A stretch of DNA of 64,000 bases from NCBI GenBank assembly GCA_963592135.1, contig CAVAVP010000031.1:5398-69397 (forward strand), read 5' to 3'. This DNA comes from a bacterium (GTDB lineage Bacteria > Bacillota > Clostridia > Christensenellales > UBA3700). The position numbers and the translations under genes were made by a program. Numbering within the stretch: the stretch's first letter is position 1; each line of letters begins with the position of its first letter. The notes under the pieces were generated by a model that saw nothing but the letters and a program-made list of their open reading frames with translations, was not told where the DNA came from and did no database searches. This document shows, piece by piece, positions 6,473 through 40,977 of the stretch.

Positions 6473-7192
6473 ATGAATTCAATAGATTTTTCCACTTACC
6501 TAAGAGAAACAAATATTTTAGATTATTCAAATAAGAATATACAATCTTTAATTGTTTCACATGGGTGGAAAAATCTAGAAGAGTTGGATAAAGTTAAATC
6601 TATTTATAATTTTGTTCGTGATGAAATCTTATTTGGTTATAATGTCGATGATAATATAAAGGCCTCTAAAGTTTTAAAAGATGGTTATGGCCAGTGTAAT
6701 ACAAAAGGTATTTTATTTATGGCATTATTAAGAGCCTGTGACGTACCTTGTAGAATTCATGGTTTTACTATTGATAAGTTGCTGCAAAAAGGCGCGATGA
6801 CCGGCTTGGTTTACAAATTAGCGCCTAAAGAAATATTTCATAGTTTTGTTGAAGCATATGTTTGTGGCGAGTGGTTTGAACTTGAAGGTTTTATTTTAGA
6901 CGATAAATATCTTGTTAGTTTACAAAGAAAGTTTAAGCCAAATCCAGATAATTCATTTTGTGGGTATGGAGTTGCTATAAATGACTTTTATAATCCACCT
7001 ATCAATTTTGAATGTTGCAATACATATATACAAAAAGAAGGAATAGTTAAAGATTTTGGAGTTTATGAAAGTCCAGATGTTTTGCTTGAAGAGCATGGAC
7101 AAGAAATGTGTGGTTTAAAAAAAATGTCTTATAAGTATATTGGCAGAAAAATAATGAATAGGAATGTTAAAATAATAAGAAATTATAACTAA
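6473..7192 (+). CDS. Transglutaminase-like cysteine protease-fold protein
   Basis: GYGQCNTKGILFMALLRACDVPCRIHGF matches the transglutaminase-core Cys motif context (G-x-C-x-x-F). Confidence 0.55.
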   Translation: MNSIDFSTYLRETNILDYSNKNIQSLIVSHGWKNLEELDKVKSIYNFVRDEILFGYNVDDNIKASKVLKDGYGQCNTKGILFMALLRACDVPCRIHGFTIDKLLQKGAMTGLVYKLAPKEIFHSFVEAYVCGEWFELEGFILDDKYLVSLQRKFKPNPDNSFCGYGVAINDFYNPPINFECCNTYIQKEGIVKDFGVYESPDVLLEEHGQEMCGLKKMSYKYIGRKIMNRNVKIIRNYN

Positions 7193-8984: not shown

Positions 8985-9140
8985 CGATAGATATTTGCAG
9001 GAGAAGACTTTTAGTCATCGAAGGAGTAACACTCTCAGAAGCTTATGCGTAGGACTGTAAATGGACGGCACTCCGGAGAAGCCTAAGGAAAAGGTACCGA
9101 AGTGGCAAGCGAAAGCTAATCTCTCAGGTAAAAGGACGGG
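8985..9140 (+). promoter_or_regulatory. Tandem glycine riboswitch (two aptamers)
   Basis: Aptamer 1 is GGAGAAG...CATCGAAGGAGTAA...CTCTCAG...GGACTG. Aptamer 2 is CTCCGGAGAAG...TACCGAAGTGGCAA...CTCTCAGGTAAAAGGAC. Both match the conserved GGAGA / CCGAAGGrGCAA / CUCUCAGGyAAAAGGAC cores. It sits upstream of an AGCS transporter, a classic context. Confidence 0.8.
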
Positions 9141-9167
9141 GAAAACATAAAAGAGTTTTTCGTTGTT

Positions 9168-9216: not shown

Positions 9217-10779
9217 ATGGATAAAATTGTAAATGTATTAACTATCGCAAATAATTGGTTAAACAATATCGTGTGGGGGTGGCCTGCAATTATTGCTATT
9301 TTGTTTACGGGAATATTACTAACCATAAGAACAAAGTTTTTACAAATTAGAAAATTTGATGAATCTTTAAAATCAACAATAGGTGTTACATTTAAAGAAA
9401 TGAAAGACGGAAAAAATAAAAAAAAGAAGGGTGTATCGTCTTTTGAGGCTTTTTCAACAGCAATTTCAGGAACAGTAGGGACGGGTAATATTATAGGAGT
9501 AGCTTCTGCCATATTAACTGGAGGCCCCGGGGCTGTTTTGTGGATGTGGATATCTGCTTTTTTTGGAATGGTAACTAATTATTCCGAAAATGCTCTAGGT
9601 TTATACTATAGAAAGAAAGATGGGAAAGGTGATTTTAAAGGCGGAGCTTTTTATTATATAGCATATGGTGTTAAGTGGAAATGGCTTGGATATATTGCTG
9701 CAGTATTTACAGTTATAGCAGCTATTGGTATGAGTGGTGTTCAAACAAATAAGATCTCTGTTACTTTGGCCGAAGCCTTTTCTCAGGCTGATTCACTTGT
9801 CTTTAAACTAGTTGTTGGAATAATTGTTGCAGTGCTTGTAGGAGTTATAATTATTGGTGGTATAAAAAGAATTTCAAAGGTTGCGTCTCTTCTAGTTCCA
9901 TTTATGTCGCTTATATTTATGGTATTAGCTTTAATCGGTATTTTTATGCATGTAACATCTATTCCTCGTGCGTTTAAACTTATATTTACAAATGCCTTTA
10001 CTTATAAATCAGCAGCGGGCGGTATTATGGGTTACGGACTTATGTCTGTAATTAGAAAAGGAATGGCGAGAGGCATATTTTCAAATGAGGCAGGATTGGG
10101 CTCATCAGTAATAGCTCATTGTTCTACTGAAAATAAGGAGCCCGTAAAACAAGGCTTATGGGGAATATTTGAAGTATTTTTTGATACTTTTATAGTTTGT
10201 ACATTAACAGCGCTATTGATTTTAACTACCTTTGATTTAGATACATTAAATACAATCACTTCAGATTCTGGTTTGTCAATAAGTGCATTCTCTACAAATT
10301 TTGGTAAATTTGGAATAATTGCTTTTGCGATTATTCTTCCATTGTTTGCTTTTACTACAATAATGGCATGGTCATATTATGGAGAAAAGGCGATAGAATT
10401 TGCTTTTGACTGGGCTAAACCAAAAGTTCAAAAAGGAATGGTTCTTGCATTTAAAATTTTATATGTGTTATTGATAGTTTTCTCCGCCGTTATAGAAAGT
10501 GATTTGGTTTGGGGAATATCAGATACGGCAAATGGGTTAATGGCTATACCTAACTTAATAGCATTAATTATCCTAAGTGGTCAGGTAGTAAAAATTACTA
10601 AGAATTACTATGATAGAAAAAAAGGAATTTTAGTTGAGCCTATGCTCTCTGCTTATCCAGAGCAAAATAAAGAATTTATAGAATATGAAAAACAAAATTC
10701 TATAAATGAAAATTCAGTTGAAGAAGAGTTAAATGCATATGAAGAATCTCATAATGCAATAGATGAAGAAAATAAGTGA
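9217..10779 (+). CDS. Alanine/glycine:cation symporter (AGCS family)
   Basis: 520 aa. FEAFSTAISGTVGTGNIIGVA and FSNEAGLGS are AGCS signature stretches. GGAG lies 6 nt before the ATG. Confidence 0.85.
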   Translation: MDKIVNVLTIANNWLNNIVWGWPAIIAILFTGILLTIRTKFLQIRKFDESLKSTIGVTFKEMKDGKNKKKKGVSSFEAFSTAISGTVGTGNIIGVASAILTGGPGAVLWMWISAFFGMVTNYSENALGLYYRKKDGKGDFKGGAFYYIAYGVKWKWLGYIAAVFTVIAAIGMSGVQTNKISVTLAEAFSQADSLVFKLVVGIIVAVLVGVIIIGGIKRISKVASLLVPFMSLIFMVLALIGIFMHVTSIPRAFKLIFTNAFTYKSAAGGIMGYGLMSVIRKGMARGIFSNEAGLGSSVIAHCSTENKEPVKQGLWGIFEVFFDTFIVCTLTALLILTTFDLDTLNTITSDSGLSISAFSTNFGKFGIIAFAIILPLFAFTTIMAWSYYGEKAIEFAFDWAKPKVQKGMVLAFKILYVLLIVFSAVIESDLVWGISDTANGLMAIPNLIALIILSGQVVKITKNYYDRKKGILVEPMLSAYPEQNKEFIEYEKQNSINENSVEEELNAYEESHNAIDEENK

Positions 10780-12617: not shown

Positions 12618-12632
12618 CATATTACAATAAGA

Positions 12633-12722
12633 TTTCTGTTACTGACGGATTAGTGGAGTACCACATGGGAGCAGAAAAATATAATTAGAAAGAGAAACTT
12701 TCAGCCGACCGTCTGGGCGCAC
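12633..12722 (+). promoter_or_regulatory. ZTP (pfl motif) riboswitch
   Basis: The 5' subdomain TTCTGttaCTGACGGATTAGTGGagtaCCACATGGGAGCAGAA and the 3' pseudoknot strand CCGACCGTCTGGGCG match the ZTP consensus (GACUGrCGG...GUGG..CCAC..GGGAG // CCGnCCGyCUGGGC). It lies upstream of purine biosynthesis genes. Confidence 0.8.
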
Positions 12723-12753
12723 ATATCTATAAGAAGATAGGTGCGCCCTTTTT
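12715..12753 (+). terminator. ZTP riboswitch expression-platform terminator
   Basis: GGGCGCACATATCT / AGATAGGTGCGCCC stem plus TTTTT. The 5' arm reuses the GGGCGC of the aptamer pseudoknot strand, which is ON-switch logic. Confidence 0.7.
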
Positions 12754-34834: not shown

Positions 34835-34878
34835 AAAAAAAAATAGGCGTCAATCTTCCATATGGTTGATTGAACGCC
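34835..34878 (-). terminator. Intrinsic terminator inside the 5' leader of the split-GOGAT operon (attenuator)
   Basis: Minus strand: GGCGT(T)CAATC...GATTGACGCC followed by TATTTTTTTTT. It lies between the promoter and the RBS. Confidence 0.7.
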
Positions 34879-34910
34879 ATTGTTCGTTGTTTGATAAAAA
34901 ATATATTTTG

Positions 34911-34939
34911 ATTTTATGATTTTCAAAAACACTTGTCAA
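34911..34939 (-). promoter_or_regulatory. Promoter of the split-GOGAT/pyrG operon
   Basis: Minus strand: TTGACA, 17 nt spacer, TAAAAT. Confidence 0.6.
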
Positions 34940-35060
34940 TTACAAATAGCATTTTTTTAGATAGATTTTTCCTTGATATATTGCCAATATTTATATAAAA
35001 TATTGATGGAGAGAACAGCGATATTTTTGTTGTATTTTACAAAAAAAAAAGAAAAAATTG

Positions 35061-35089
35061 TTGACACAAAAAATAAGTCTTGGTATATT
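35061..35089 (+). promoter_or_regulatory. Promoter of the type III glutamine synthetase gene
   Basis: TTGACA, 17 nt spacer, TATATT. Confidence 0.6.
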
Positions 35090-35113
35090 ATAGCCATATA
35101 AATAAGTCAGCAA

Positions 35114-35150
35114 GGCGCTGTGGATTAATGTATCCATAGTGCCCTTTTTT
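35114..35150 (+). terminator. Intrinsic terminator inside the 5' leader of the type III GS gene (attenuator)
   Basis: 12-bp stem GGCGCTGTGGAT / ATCCATAGTGCC (two G-U pairs), loop TAATGT, then CTTTTTT, about 45 nt before the ATG. Confidence 0.7.
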
Positions 35151-35195
35151 ATTTATGAAAACAACAAAGATTAACTTTTAAGGAGAAATATAAAT

Positions 35196-37283
35196 ATGAC
35201 AAACATTCCAGAATTATTTGGCTCAATGGTATTCAATGATTCGGTAATGAAAGAAAGATTACCTCATGAAACTTACAAAGCAATGCATAAGACCATTCAA
35301 GAAGGTCAATCATTGGATATAACAGTTGCAAATGTAGTTGCTAATGCTATGAAGGATTGGGCAATTGAAAAGGGTGCAACTCATTACACTCACTGGTTCC
35401 AACCTATGACTGGTGTTACCGCAGAAAAGCATGATAGTTTTATTTCACCAACAAAAGAGGGAAATATAATAATGGAGTTTTCTGGAAAAGAATTGATTAA
35501 AGGAGAACCAGATGCTTCATCATTCCCATCAGGAGGTTTAAGAGCAACCGCAGAAGCTCGTGGGTATACAGCCTGGGATCCAACATCTTATGCTTTTATT
35601 AAAGATAAATGTTTATGTATTCCAACAGCCTTTTGTTCATATACAGGGGAAGCCTTAGATAAAAAGACTCCACTTTTACGTTCTATGGCTGCAATTAATA
35701 AGCAAGCTTTAAGAATTTTAAAATTATTTGGAGACCCCGCAACTAAAGTTTCTACAACAGTAGGACCTGAACAAGAATATTTCTTAATTGATGAAGACAT
35801 ATACGAAAAAAGAAAAGATTTAATTTATACAGGTCGTACATTATTTGGTGCTCCAGCTCCAAAGGGGCAAGAAATGGAAGATCACTACTTTGGTGTTATT
35901 AAGCCTAGAGTTCAAGCTTTTATGGACGATTTAAATGTGGAGTGTTGGAAACTTGGTATTTTAGCAAAAACAGAGCACAACGAAGTTGCACCTGCTCAAC
36001 ATGAATTGGCTCCAATTTTCTCAACAACAAATATTGCAACAGACCATAACCAAATCTTAATGGAGTTATTACAAAAAGTTGCAAAGAAACATCACATGGT
36101 ATGTTTGCTTCATGAAAAGCCATTTGATGGAGTAAACGGTTCAGGCAAACATAATAACTGGTCTATAGGAACAGATAAAGCAAACTTATTAGAGCCAGGT
36201 GAAACACCAGCAGAAAATGCAAAATTCTTGGTATTTTTAGCTGCTGTAATTAAGGCTGTTGACGAGTATCAAGATTTACTTAGAATCTCTGTTGCATCTG
36301 CAGGAAATGACCATAGATTGGGCGCTAATGAAGCACCTCCAGCTATTGTTTCAATGTTTGTTGGTGATGAACTTCAAGCAGTACTTGATTCAATCGAAAG
36401 CGGTATTAAATATGAGGGCAAAAAGAGAGTTCAAATGAAAATTGGTGTAGATGTTTTGCCAAAGTTCCCTAAGGATACTACAGATAGAAACAGAACCTCG
36501 CCATTTGCATTTACTGGAAACAAATTTGAGTTCCGTATGGTAGGATCTGCAGATTCAATTGCTTGTGCAAATATTATGATTAATACAGCAGTGGCTGAAG
36601 AATTAAGACAATTTGCAGACGAACTTGAAAAGGCAACAGATTTCCAAACAGCGTTAAATTCATTGGTTAAAAAGACTATTAAAGAACATAAGAGAATTAT
36701 CTTTAACGGAAATGGCTATGACGATGCATGGATAAAAGAAGCAGAAAAGAGAGGACTTTTAAACTTAAAGACAACTCCTGAAGCTTTGGTTAGATATACT
36801 GATAAGAAAAATCTTGAATTATTTAAAATTCATGAAGTATATACTGAAACTGAAGTTAAGGCAAGACAAGAAATCTTATTTGAAAACTATGCAAAATTAA
36901 TCAATATTGAAGCATTAACAATGATTCAAATGGTTAAAAAGTCTATTTTGCCTGCCATATCTTCTTACTCAAAAGAAATCGCTGATACAATTTTAAAGAA
37001 GAAGGAAGCAATTAAGGATATAGATTGTTCATATGAGGAATTACAATTAAAGAAAATGTCAAAATATAGTGCAAAGATGCTTGAAGATGTTCAATCACTA
37101 GAGGCTGCTGAAAAGAAAGCATTTAGGATTGAAGAAGCACAAGATAGAGCAATGAGCTTTATGCAAGAAGTTTTACCTTTAATGTCAGCAGTTAGAGCAA
37201 GTTCAGATGCACTAGAAACTACTGTTTCTAAGAAGTGTTGGCCTTTCCCGACATACGGAGACATCTTATTCTCAGTAAAATAA
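35196..37283 (+). CDS. glnN: Glutamine synthetase type III
   Basis: 695 aa, N-terminal [32 protein letters not shown] and [16 protein letters not shown] motifs characteristic of GSIII. Confidence 0.9.
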
Positions 37284-37320
37284 AAAGAGAATAAAACTAT
37301 AATATAAAAACGCAATGGTT

Positions 37321-37356
37321 GCGAGATTTAGTTTAGGCTAAATCTCGCATTTTTTT
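37321..37356 (+). terminator. Intrinsic terminator between glnN and asnB (terminator/attenuator)
   Basis: GCGAGATTTAG / CTAAATCTCGC stem, loop TTTAGG, then ATTTTTTT. Only 33 nt remain before the asnB ATG, with no promoter in between. Confidence 0.7.
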
Positions 37357-38996: not shown

Positions 38997-39040
38997 TACC
39001 GACGCTCAGTTCTCTCCCATGATGAGCGCCGGTACTTTTA
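38997..39040 (+). terminator. Terminator after asnB
   Basis: TACCGACGCTCA / TGAGCGCCGGTA stem (1 mismatch) plus CTTTT. Confidence 0.55.
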
Positions 39041-39065
39041 TGAAAGTAGAATAAATTGTAATTTG

Positions 39066-39094
39066 TTGAATAGTGAATTGCTTTTTATTATAAT
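39066..39094 (+). promoter_or_regulatory. Promoter of the GS-like / ANTAR operon
   Basis: TTGAAT, 17 nt spacer, TATAAT, 28 nt before the ATG at 39123. There is no leader terminator here. Confidence 0.6.
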
Positions 39095-39122
39095 AATTAA
39101 AAATAAAAACACGAGGTGTGTT

Positions 39123-40403
39123 ATGAATCGTTCGGAAAGAGATGTATTAGATTTTATACAAGATAATGATGTTAAGTTTGTAAAACTAGCTTTTTGCGAT
39201 GCACTTGGAAACTTAAAAAACGTATCAATTTACGCAGATGAATTAGAAAATATTTTTGAAAAAGGTATAGCAATAGAAGAGGAAGCTTTTGATGGGATAG
39301 CTTCATATGAAAATGGAGATATTAGATTATTTCCAGACCCATCAACATTACACCTTCTTCCATGGAGACCACAACAAGGTGCAGTTGTTAGAATGTATTG
39401 TACACTAAAGCATCCGGATGGAACTATAGCGGAATGTGATGGTAGAGCTTTACTTAAAGCTGCTCAAGAAAAGTTGGCATCACTTGGATATACTTGCGCA
39501 ATAGGTTCAGATTGTGATTTTTACTTGTTTGAACTTGATGAAAAAGGAAAACCTACATCTATTCCTTATGATAATGCAGGTTATTTAGATTCAGCCCCAC
39601 TTGATAAAGGCGAAAATGTAAGAAGAGAAATATGCTTTACACTAGAAACTTTTGGGATTAGACCATCTTCTTCTCATCATGAAAAAGGACCAGGACAAAA
39701 TGAAATCTTATTTAACTATAATGATGCTCTTTTAGCTGCGGATGATTTGATTTCGTTTAAATCGACAGTAAAGTCAGTGGCAGAAAAGAATGGATTATAT
39801 GCATCATTTCTCCCAAAGCCTTTAAACAATGAAGAGGGTAGTGCTCTTCGTGTTAAGTTTAGGTTGAAAAAAGATGGAGTAAATTTCCCAACAGATTCTA
39901 AAGAAGTAAAAAGTTTTTTAGCTGGCATTTTGAATAAAATATCTGAAATAACACTATTTTTAAATCCTACACCAAACTCTTATGATAGATTTAAATTTGA
40001 TAAATCACCTAAATATATAGGTTGGGCAGAACAAAAATACAACCAAGTAATAAGAGTAAGTGGACACAGGGTTGCAGTTTATTCGGCAGACCCATCTTGT
40101 AATCCATATGTTGCTTATGCGCTTTTATTGTATGCTGGTGCAGAAGGACTCGAGAAAAATATGGAACTCCCATTGCCTATAGGAGAATCTATACAAGAAG
40201 TTAATAAAAATTTATATAAATCTTTGCCACTAAGTTTAGAGCAAGCAATAAAGGAGGCTAAAGAAAGTAATTTCCTTAAAGAATATATTCCATTAAAGCA
40301 TTTAGAACAATTTATAGCCTATAAAGAAAACGAACTAGAAGACTATAACATGGCTTCAAATAAAGAGAAATTTTTAAATGATAAATATTTTGGAAAGATA
40401 TAG
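39123..40403 (+). CDS. Glutamine synthetase type I-like protein with degenerate catalytic residues (probable pseudoenzyme/sensor)
   Basis: It aligns along its whole length with GlnA (FDG, HHEKGPGQNEI, NSYDRF, DPSCNPY). The catalytic motifs are altered: GSDCDFYLF, EGSALRV, YNQVIRVS, RVAVYSAD. Start set at ATG 39123 (ACGAGGTG RBS), not the TTG at 39063. Confidence 0.7.
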   Translation: MNRSERDVLDFIQDNDVKFVKLAFCDALGNLKNVSIYADELENIFEKGIAIEEEAFDGIASYENGDIRLFPDPSTLHLLPWRPQQGAVVRMYCTLKHPDGTIAECDGRALLKAAQEKLASLGYTCAIGSDCDFYLFELDEKGKPTSIPYDNAGYLDSAPLDKGENVRREICFTLETFGIRPSSSHHEKGPGQNEILFNYNDALLAADDLISFKSTVKSVAEKNGLYASFLPKPLNNEEGSALRVKFRLKKDGVNFPTDSKEVKSFLAGILNKISEITLFLNPTPNSYDRFKFDKSPKYIGWAEQKYNQVIRVSGHRVAVYSADPSCNPYVAYALLLYAGAEGLEKNMELPLPIGESIQEVNKNLYKSLPLSLEQAIKEAKESNFLKEYIPLKHLEQFIAYKENELEDYNMASNKEKFLNDKYFGKI

Positions 40404-40413
40404 GGAAAATTAA

Positions 40414-40977
40414 ATGGCAGATCTTCTATATGTATCAGTATCTCCAATACCTACAGAGTTGGCACAGCTTTTAAAAAGAGCTGGGTATCATTCATACGAT
40501 TTAGCAAAATCTGCAGGGGAGGCTAGAAGATTAATAAATTTGCGTCAATATGACGAAATAATTATTGCATCGCCACTTCCTGATGAGCTTGGAGATAAAC
40601 TTGCTCTAGATATAGCATTAGATACATCATCAAATATAATTTTTATAGCAAAACCTGAGGTTGTTAGCTTAATTGAGTTTAAGATGGAAAGCAATGGAAT
40701 TGTAGTATTTGCAAAGCCAGTGTCAGGAAGTTTGCTTTATAAGGTTTTAACCATTTTTAAAGCGGTAGATAGGAGAATGAGTGTTGTCTTAGAAAAGAAT
40801 AAAAAGCTTGAAGATAGGATTGAGGAAATTAAACTTGTATCACGTGCAAAAATGATATTAATGTCAAAAATGGGAATAAGTGAAGAAGAGGCACATAAAC
40901 ATTTAGATAAAACAGCAAAAGATCAAAGAAAAACAAAAAGGGAAATTGCACTTGCAATTATTCAAATGTATGAATAG
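40414..40977 (+). CDS. ANTAR-domain RNA-binding antiterminator with a pseudo-receiver domain (NitR-like)
   Basis: C-terminal ANTAR (LVSRAKMILMSKMGISEEEAHKHLDKTAKDQRKTKREIALAII). The N-terminal receiver fold lacks the DD pocket and the phospho-Asp (VSVSPIP, IIIASPLPD). Confidence 0.8.
   Translation: MADLLYVSVSPIPTELAQLLKRAGYHSYDLAKSAGEARRLINLRQYDEIIIASPLPDELGDKLALDIALDTSSNIIFIAKPEVVSLIEFKMESNGIVVFAKPVSGSLLYKVLTIFKAVDRRMSVVLEKNKKLEDRIEEIKLVSRAKMILMSKMGISEEEAHKHLDKTAKDQRKTKREIALAIIQMYE

Follow-up and report, generated by a model that had tools for sequence, protein, structure and literature searches.

The RNA targets of antiterminators with an ANTAR domain were originally described as two tandem stem-loops, P1 and P2, which carry hexanucleotide loops with A at position 1 and G at position 4 (A1/G4) and of which P2 overlaps the intrinsic terminator (Ramesh et al. 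2012, PMC3369931). The EutV dimer was later found to contact a single hexaloop; the minimal ANTAR site was redefined, the existence of single-hexaloop targets and the genes under their control were explicitly raised as questions, and a search for such targets was urged (Walshe et al. 2022, PMC8934654). Here, we analysed the leader of glnN, the gene for type III glutamine synthetase (GS), in a 64,000-nucleotide (nt) stretch from a member of the Christensenellales (UBA3700; GenBank assembly GCA_963592135.1, contig CAVAVP010000031.1, positions 5,398 to 69,397 of the forward strand), referred to below as the window. A real hairpin-plus-terminator unit precedes glnN, and judging from sequence comparisons, this leader is likely to be a single-hexaloop ANTAR antiterminator of the NitR type that controls a nitrogen-assimilation regulon, including the divergently transcribed operon for glutamate synthase (GOGAT).

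Among the described systems, the EutV-controlled eut leaders of Enterococcus faecalis (PMC3369931, PMC8934654) are similar to the glnN leader in that the 3' half of a small A1/G4 stem-loop is the 5' arm of a terminator, and in that a nearby gene encodes an ANTAR protein that combines a coiled coil with a receiver-type domain at its N terminus. By contrast, eut targets consist of two tandem hexaloops, P1 and P2, whereas the window has the P2 equivalent only, located at the 5' end of the mRNA and, in glnN, with a loop of 5 nt; furthermore, EutV is phosphorylated by EutW, whereas the ANTAR protein of the window has no phospho-acceptor aspartate. On the physiological side, the ANTAR antiterminator NitR is reported to induce GS and GOGAT genes in Clostridium saccharobutylicum (PMC6316151, citing Stutz 2007), and the Clo1313_2030-2038 cluster of Clostridium thermocellum has the same layout and is co-regulated (PMC4676874, PMC9888227). 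These NitR systems share with the window the pairing of a type I GS (GS-I) gene with a small ANTAR gene next to it, in a cluster that includes GOGAT and, for C. thermocellum, a type III GS gene as well; for both species, GS and GOGAT antitermination under nitrogen limitation has been proposed. The clostridial glnA system also involves an antisense RNA, and the GS-I partner of the window is catalytically degenerate. No hairpin motif is described in PMC4676874, PMC9888227 or the accessible text of PMC6316151.

Three further systems resemble the window in part. AmiC-AmiR of Pseudomonas aeruginosa and NasS-NasT of Paracoccus (PMC3369936, PMC3795266) also combine a non-phosphorylatable receiver-like domain with a sensor encoded by an adjacent gene, but their sensors have the periplasmic-binding-protein fold and respond to amide or nitrate, whereas the candidate sensor in the window is a GS paralogue with a putative interaction. 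In Bacillus, feedback-inhibited GS acts as a chaperone of GlnR and TnrA, so that a GS-I reports glutamine status by direct binding (PMC9249791); the regulator there is a DNA-binding repressor, whereas the proposed regulator of the present system is an antiterminator that binds RNA, with a GS partner that is in some cases without catalytic activity. Finally, the ribonucleic antiterminator (RAT) of the LicT/SacY/BglG family is likewise one protein-stabilised hairpin overlapping the 5' arm of a terminator (compared in PMC3369936). Membership of the glnN leader in this family was considered and rejected, both the protein domain and the RNA being unrelated. The RAT measures approximately 29 nt and has internal loops, and the CAT/PRD proteins that bind it have a domain unrelated to ANTAR.

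The glnN promoter (35061-35089, plus strand), located by a consensus scan, comprises the -35 hexamer TTGACA (35061-35066), a 17-nt spacer and an extended -10 element, TGgTATATT, with the hexamer TATATT at 35084-35089; it matches 11 of the 12 consensus positions and carries TG 5' of the -10. Transcription is predicted to start near 35096, approximately 11 nt before a mini-hairpin (35108-35120, plus strand) with a 4-bp stem and a pentaloop, CAGC-AAGGC-GCUG (CAGC 35108-35111, AAGGC 35112-35116, GCTG 35117-35120), which is the proposed ANTAR site. The terminator (35114-35150, plus strand) is formed by a 12-bp stem with 6 G-C and two G.U pairs, its arms GGCGCTGTGGAT (35114-35125) and ATCCATAGTGCC (35132-35143) enclosing the loop UAAUGU (TAATGT in the DNA) and being followed by C and U6 (35144-35150); this GC-rich stem-loop with its U-tract qualifies as an intrinsic terminator. 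Between the end of the tract and the glnN ATG at 35196 there are 45 nt, including the ribosome-binding site AAGGAG (35180-35185), and the coding sequence extends to 37283 (site and gene together, 35180-37283, plus strand), the product matching the Pfam families GSIII_N, Gln-synt_C and Gln-synt_C-ter. Seven nucleotides (35114-35120), namely GGC of the loop and the 3' strand of the stem of the hairpin, belong to both structures, so that the hairpin overlaps the 5' arm of the terminator with its 3' part. The original prediction had placed the promoter, mini-hairpin, 12-bp terminator, CTTTTTT tract and 45-nt distance exactly in this way, and the anatomy of the leader can be regarded as established.

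Folding of the terminator yields -20.5 kcal/mol (z = -7.0), against -4.1 kcal/mol for the mini-hairpin, an unremarkable value (z = -0.46). Given this difference, the mini-hairpin is unable to compete without a protein. When the 30 nt upstream were shuffled with the terminator kept fixed, a hairpin overlapping the 5' arm, with a stem of 4 bp or more and an A1/G4 loop, arose in 6% of the shuffles for the glnN leader and in 1% for the GOGAT leader. The chance level in a single sequence is thus modest, and the significance of the hairpin comes only through its conservation.

To assess the latter, we used 80 glnN loci of other genomes, mostly metagenome-assembled genomes (MAGs) of Clostridia, taken from among the matches listed, in which GlnN is 63-72% identical to that of the window; close relatives were retrieved separately by a search for contigs encoding the protein. 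A terminator search blind to the hairpin showed that in many leaders a box containing CAGCAAAGGCGCTG runs into the terminator. Hairpins with an overlapping terminator, the 3' part of the former again being the 5' arm of the latter, number 84 in the 1.36 Mb of glnN loci compared to 6 in shuffled sequence, and a relaxed scan found such a unit in the 300 nt preceding glnN for 45 of 79 leaders but in only 1 of 80 control segments within the open reading frame (ORF). Similarly, complementarity of at least 4 bp surrounds the sequence AANGG[CT] in 44% of its occurrences in leaders and in 2.3% of those elsewhere. In 64 aligned hairpins, the closing C-G pair is invariant, whereas positions 2, 3 and 4 are paired in 100%, 100% and 97% of the cases through three to six pair types each, although the scan that collected this set imposed the first three pairs and the loop identity and left only pairs four and five free. 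The free fourth pair is A-U in 20 hairpins, C-G in 19, G-C in 17 and U-A in 3, and the second pair is G.U in 18. The covariation score of the set is 0.623, compared to 0.244 for shuffled alignments (none of 500 reached 0.623) and 0.10-0.18 when the partners were slid. When the constraint on the loop was lifted, an upstream stem of at least 4 bp was still found to compete with 35 of the 41 strong leader terminators; the most frequent loop length was 6, and all 23 hexaloops read A-A-N-G-G-C, with A1 and G4. The original prediction had come with a suggested check, namely whether orthologous leaders show a covarying mini-hairpin and a conserved CAA(T)GG loop, and this check was clearly passed.

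The stems differ from gene to gene around this loop, being CAGC/GCUG or AAGGC/GUCUU before glnN, (AU)GAAC/GUUC(AU) before GOGAT, where leaders of other genomes read (AU)GAAC-AAAGGC-GUUC(AU), and ACAC/GUGU before amt-PII. The A1/G4 signature is present in the window as AAGGC (glnN), AAUGGC (GOGAT) and AAUGGUU (asnB), although the consensus loop of the family is the hexaloop AAAGGC and the glnN loop of the window is 1 nt shorter. The same pentaloop is found before glnN in a relative with 98% identity. By contrast, a relative with 84% identity has CAGC-AACGGC-GCTG before glnN and GAAC-AAAGGC-GTTC before GOGAT, indicating that AAGGC in the window arose by a recent deletion of 1 nt. The -35 hexamer TTGACA of glnN is unchanged in the relatives with 98%, 84% and 76% identity, and the -10 box is likewise conserved in relatives of the window. 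Seven glnN leaders carry two complete hairpin-terminator units in tandem, approximately 65 nt apart (including L001, at 9830-9990, L004, L006, L031, L032 and L042); these are double attenuators and not a P1-P2 pair. Motif-bearing glnN loci were also found in MAGs labelled as non-Firmicutes (L046 and L079, Alistipes; L006, Spirochaetaceae), for which mis-binning or a horizontally transferred cluster may be responsible.

The family fits the minimal ANTAR site as redefined by Walshe et al. (PMC8934654), a single hexaloop with G4, the glnN copy of the window falling short by 1 nt. In nearly every instance, the hairpin is preceded at a distance of 5-18 nt by the end of a promoter with 10 to 12 matches to the 12 consensus positions, a placement that is itself well established. 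With strong sigma-70 promoters so close, the hairpin is the first structure of the transcript, and there is no room for P1. A second hairpin with an A..G.. hexaloop in the 50 nt upstream is no more common (9 of 75 cases) than shuffling predicts (9.1 cases). Neither a glutamine riboswitch nor any other relevant Rfam family was detected at or near either leader of the window, at the gathering threshold or at E <= 10, nor in the loci with canonical hexaloops.

Several observations weigh against recognition by an ANTAR protein. The glnN loop of the window has 5 nt rather than 6; P1 is missing, and EutV has been reported to require both hairpins. The loop nucleotides GGC (positions 4 to 6) also form the base of the stem of the terminator, and the U-tract is able to pair with the A-run, so that conservation of the loop has a second cause and does not in itself prove recognition by a protein. 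In 21 motif-bearing loci, no ANTAR gene is present in the flanks covered. In two relatives with 76% identity (L083, at 6880-6935, and L084), the glnN leader keeps the AAAAGGC box and the terminator but has no upstream strand to pair with, and the antiterminator seems to have been lost from this leader. The GOGAT leader of the same two genomes reads GAAC-AACGGUG-GUUC, with a loop of 7 nt, and no GS-like/ANTAR gene pair was found in the 16 kb covered around L083 and L084.

On the protein side, glnN of the window is followed by asnB, a gene for a GS-I-like protein and, 5.2 kb downstream of the glnN leader, the gene for an intact ANTAR protein of 187 residues (40414-40977, plus strand; Pfam ANTAR, 54.8 bits), the candidate antiterminator. 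It combines a receiver-like N-terminal domain, a coiled coil and the ANTAR domain; residues 12-184 align to Rv1626 and EutV, whereas the matches to AmiR and NasR are shorter, that to NasR being confined to the ANTAR domain. In the family alignment, the phospho-acceptor aspartate is replaced by alanine in the window and mostly by asparagine in 22 homologues, and the window protein belongs to the AmiR-like pseudo-receiver subclass of ANTAR proteins (PF03861). Lack of the phospho-acceptor suggests that control is probably exerted through a partner protein and not through phosphorylation. Where EutV has Tyr164, which stacks on G4, there is a histidine, as in AmiR. Members of this ANTAR cluster carry the label 'PdtaR' at JGI.

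The proposed partner and sensor of nitrogen status is the GS-I-like protein encoded immediately upstream (39123-40403, plus strand; 426 residues from the ATG), as recognised by Pfam and by alignment to solved GS structures. Its catalytic motifs are changed, ExE to DCD (DxD), GSGMH to GSALR, NR to KY and RxELR to RVAVY, and it does not qualify as a catalytic type I GS. The degenerate motifs are shared by the relatives with 96% and 77% identity, in which the ORFs are intact, whereas most ANTAR-linked GS-I proteins of other loci retain the catalytic residues. The window protein looks like a maintained pseudoenzyme, and a GS paralogue kept beside a regulator without catalysis points to a conserved role that would be regulatory; plausibly, it is a dedicated sensor. 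The linkage itself is firmly established: in 28 of the 80 loci, tblastn located a GS-I-like/ANTAR pair no farther than 10 kb from glnN, mostly at the end of the GOGAT operon and divergent from glnN, and the motif is present in all 28 (19 by the strict scan and 9 by inspection). The original prediction had named the ANTAR protein as the trans-acting candidate, and this assignment gains support from the A1/G4 loop, the P2-like overlap with the terminator, the occurrence of the motif in every linked locus and the published NitR proposals (PMC6316151, PMC4676874).

In the mechanism that we infer, which extends to binding by the ANTAR protein, the sign of the control and the part of the GS-like protein as sensor, the more stable terminator (35114-35143 and the U-tract) would form by default and transcription would end before glnN. 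Under nitrogen limitation, free NitR-type ANTAR protein (40414-40977) would capture the loop of the nascent mini-hairpin, and the bound hairpin would hold GGC-GCUG, that is, 7 of the 12 nt of the 5' arm of the terminator. The remnant of the terminator would then amount to 5 bp, separated from the U-tract by 8 nt (35137-35144), and RNA polymerase would read through into glnN. A lone hairpin at the extreme 5' end of the mRNA would suffice, with no need for P1 as a recruitment hairpin, and the same protein would act on the sister hairpins before GOGAT and asnB, uniting the three in one regulon. At high glutamine, the GS-like protein, sensing glutamine status, would sequester the ANTAR protein, in analogy to AmiC-AmiR and NasS-NasT.

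Several of these observations also bear on other explanations. The unit could be a real antiterminator that is read by a different RNA-binding factor, be it another protein or the GS-like protein itself, which we consider unlikely. The single hairpin, where two are canonical, and the 21 motif loci without an ANTAR gene in their flanks speak for such a factor, as does the fact that other families of proteins, LicT/SacY among them, typically act through a single antiterminator hairpin. However, the recurrent linkage of an ANTAR gene to these operons, complete with the motif in 28 of 28 loci, argues against it; no CAT/PRD-type antiterminator or other RNA-binding regulator is encoded among the 10 genes scanned around the leaders, and the A1/G4 hexaloop is a specific signature of ANTAR targets (PMC3369931, PMC8934654). 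Quite improbable is a factor-independent attenuator or a hairpin stabilising the 5' end, with nitrogen control exerted at initiation, for instance through the conserved palindrome that lies between the divergent promoters (34985-35005). The hairpin does lie at the extreme 5' end, and 5'-end stem-loops stabilise Gram-positive mRNAs. Nevertheless, this function needs no conserved loop, no fixed loop of 6 nt and no overlap with a terminator, the intercistronic copies are not at a 5' end, and an unaided hairpin of -3 to -4 kcal/mol cannot sway termination against -16 to -20 kcal/mol.

It is very improbable that the conserved box is a DNA operator just past the transcription start, with an incidental potential to form a hairpin. 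Although the element is an inverted repeat at the DNA level and lies at approximately +12 to +25 from strong promoters, its centre (AAAGGC) is conserved while the arms vary, the reverse of what is seen in a palindromic operator; 18 of the 64 stems use G.U pairs, which are mismatched in DNA; the 3' half is always inside the terminator, in fixed orientation; and there are copies between cistrons that have no promoter. Chance complementarity beside an ordinary leader terminator, for which the 6% frequency in a single sequence and the energy z-score of -0.46 would leave room, can practically be dismissed, being refuted by conservation and covariation across loci with a GlnN identity of 63-72%. An ANTAR antiterminator thus remains our preferred interpretation of the glnN leader.

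The window contains two sister units. On the minus strand, the divergent genes encode a split GOGAT (GATase_2, Glu_synthase and GXGXG) and PyrG, and are preceded by a promoter (34911-34939, minus strand; TTGACA, 17-nt spacer, TAAAAT) that has 11 of 12 consensus matches and is invariant in the relatives. The GOGAT leader unit (34835-34885, minus strand), recognised by sequence and folding, consists of the hairpin GAAC-AAUGGC-GUUC (34885-34872) and an overlapping terminator with its 5' arm at 34878-34868, its 3' arm at 34855-34846 and then UA and U9 ending at 34835; the terminator folds with -15.9 kcal/mol and the mini-hairpin with -3.1 kcal/mol. The third unit (37311-37356, plus strand; sequence and folding) occupies the gap between glnN and asnB, where the hairpin CGC-AAUGGUU-GCG or, alternatively, CGCA-AUGGU-UGCG (37311-37323), with a loop of 7 or 5 nt, respectively, overlaps a 13-bp terminator (37320-37349) followed by U7 (-4.0 compared to -18.5 kcal/mol). 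The asnB unit may act either on glnN read-through or on a transcript of its own; a weak TATAAT (37298-37303) lies 7 nt before it. In the relative with 84% identity, the equivalent of this unit, CGC-AAAGACU-GCG, precedes amt-PII. That glnN and GOGAT share one attenuator design, as had been proposed, is borne out by its recurrence in both leaders of many genomes and by this third copy. When the window was scanned with a covariance model, the GOGAT leader ranked first and only the two training leaders scored well, the asnB unit being missed because of its 7-nt loop. The next match (9985-10008, minus strand) was rejected as a false positive, as it lies inside an ORF and has no terminator.

In other loci, the genes 3' of the motif encode, in addition to GlnN and split GOGAT, Amt-PII fusions, AsnA, glutamate dehydrogenase (Gdh), bona fide GS-I (GlnA) and large GltB. 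Examples before amt-PII fusions (with ACAC/GUGU stems), gdh, asnA, catalytically intact GS-I genes and large gltB are found in L011 (12122), L024 (12503), L080 (12109), L033 (12154), L048 (3021), L029 (8882), L075 (16500, minus strand) and L046 (6064, minus strand). Some copies are intercistronic and have no promoter, for example 20-35 nt past the glnN stop codon and before amt-PII. Together with asnB in the window, the motif defines what is predicted to be a coherent ammonium-assimilation regulon.

A few other elements surround these units. Midway between the divergent glnN and GOGAT promoters there is a perfect palindrome, CAATATTT-ATATA-AAATATTG (34985-35005), which occurs once in the window and is kept in the relatives with 98% and 84% identity; it may be the operator of a DNA-binding regulator acting on both promoters. 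Downstream of asnB, a hairpin, ACCGACGCTCA / TGAGCGCCGGT, with a weak U-tract (38998-39041, plus strand) is followed by a TATAAT-type promoter (39060-39122, plus strand) in front of the GS-like gene. The GS-like/ANTAR operon of the window has no attenuator of its own; elsewhere, the pair often lies inside an attenuated GOGAT operon, a location that would permit autoregulation. Rfam matches above the gathering threshold are a ZMP/ZTP riboswitch (12628-12725, plus strand; 54.6 bits) and a glycine riboswitch (9063-9149, plus strand; 46.7 bits), the latter just 5' of an ORF at 9217-10779.

Parts of this picture have precedents. Dual-hairpin ANTAR matches upstream of GS/ANTAR gene pairs are already listed by Ramesh et al. 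(Table S2), and control of clostridial GS and GOGAT by the ANTAR protein NitR has been proposed (PMC6316151, PMC4676874). A literature search for single-hairpin ANTAR targets or for ANTAR proteins in connection with glnN returned nothing beyond Walshe et al. (PMC8934654), although Stutz 2007 and Rydzak 2017 may describe an RNA element. What is new is the single-hairpin architecture at the 5' terminus, its breadth across loci and genes, the loops of 5 to 7 nt, and the association with an ANTAR protein of the pseudo-receiver type and with a GS paralogue that is sometimes dead. As ANTAR antitermination has been defined by the dual hairpin, searches built on that model miss such elements.

The leaders described here look like a large natural set of the single-hexaloop targets sought in PMC8934654, and this set covers genes central to ammonium assimilation in abundant Clostridia of the gut and rumen. 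Its natural variation comprises three loop lengths (5, 6 and 7 nt), stems that differ between genes and units in tandem, and among its hosts are the cultured Claveliimonas monacensis DSM 108991 (L004) and Herbinix hemicellulosilytica T3/55T (L029). Furthermore, it provides a concrete candidate RNA target for the long-hypothesised NitR regulator and suggests a reason for the retention, beside the regulator, of a type I GS gene that is dead in some cases. More tentatively, and with a confidence that stops somewhat short of even, we propose that in many Clostridia the nitrogen regulon (glnN, GOGAT, amt-PII, asnA, asnB, gdh and glnA) is switched by a 5'-terminal single-hexaloop ANTAR target, and that the pseudo-receiver ANTAR protein is restrained by a glutamine sensor derived from a GS paralogue, which is catalytically dead in some lineages, including that of the window. 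If this proposal is true, these leaders would represent the first natural class of single-hexaloop ANTAR antiterminators, and the protein pair would be a counterpart of AmiC-AmiR built from a GS.

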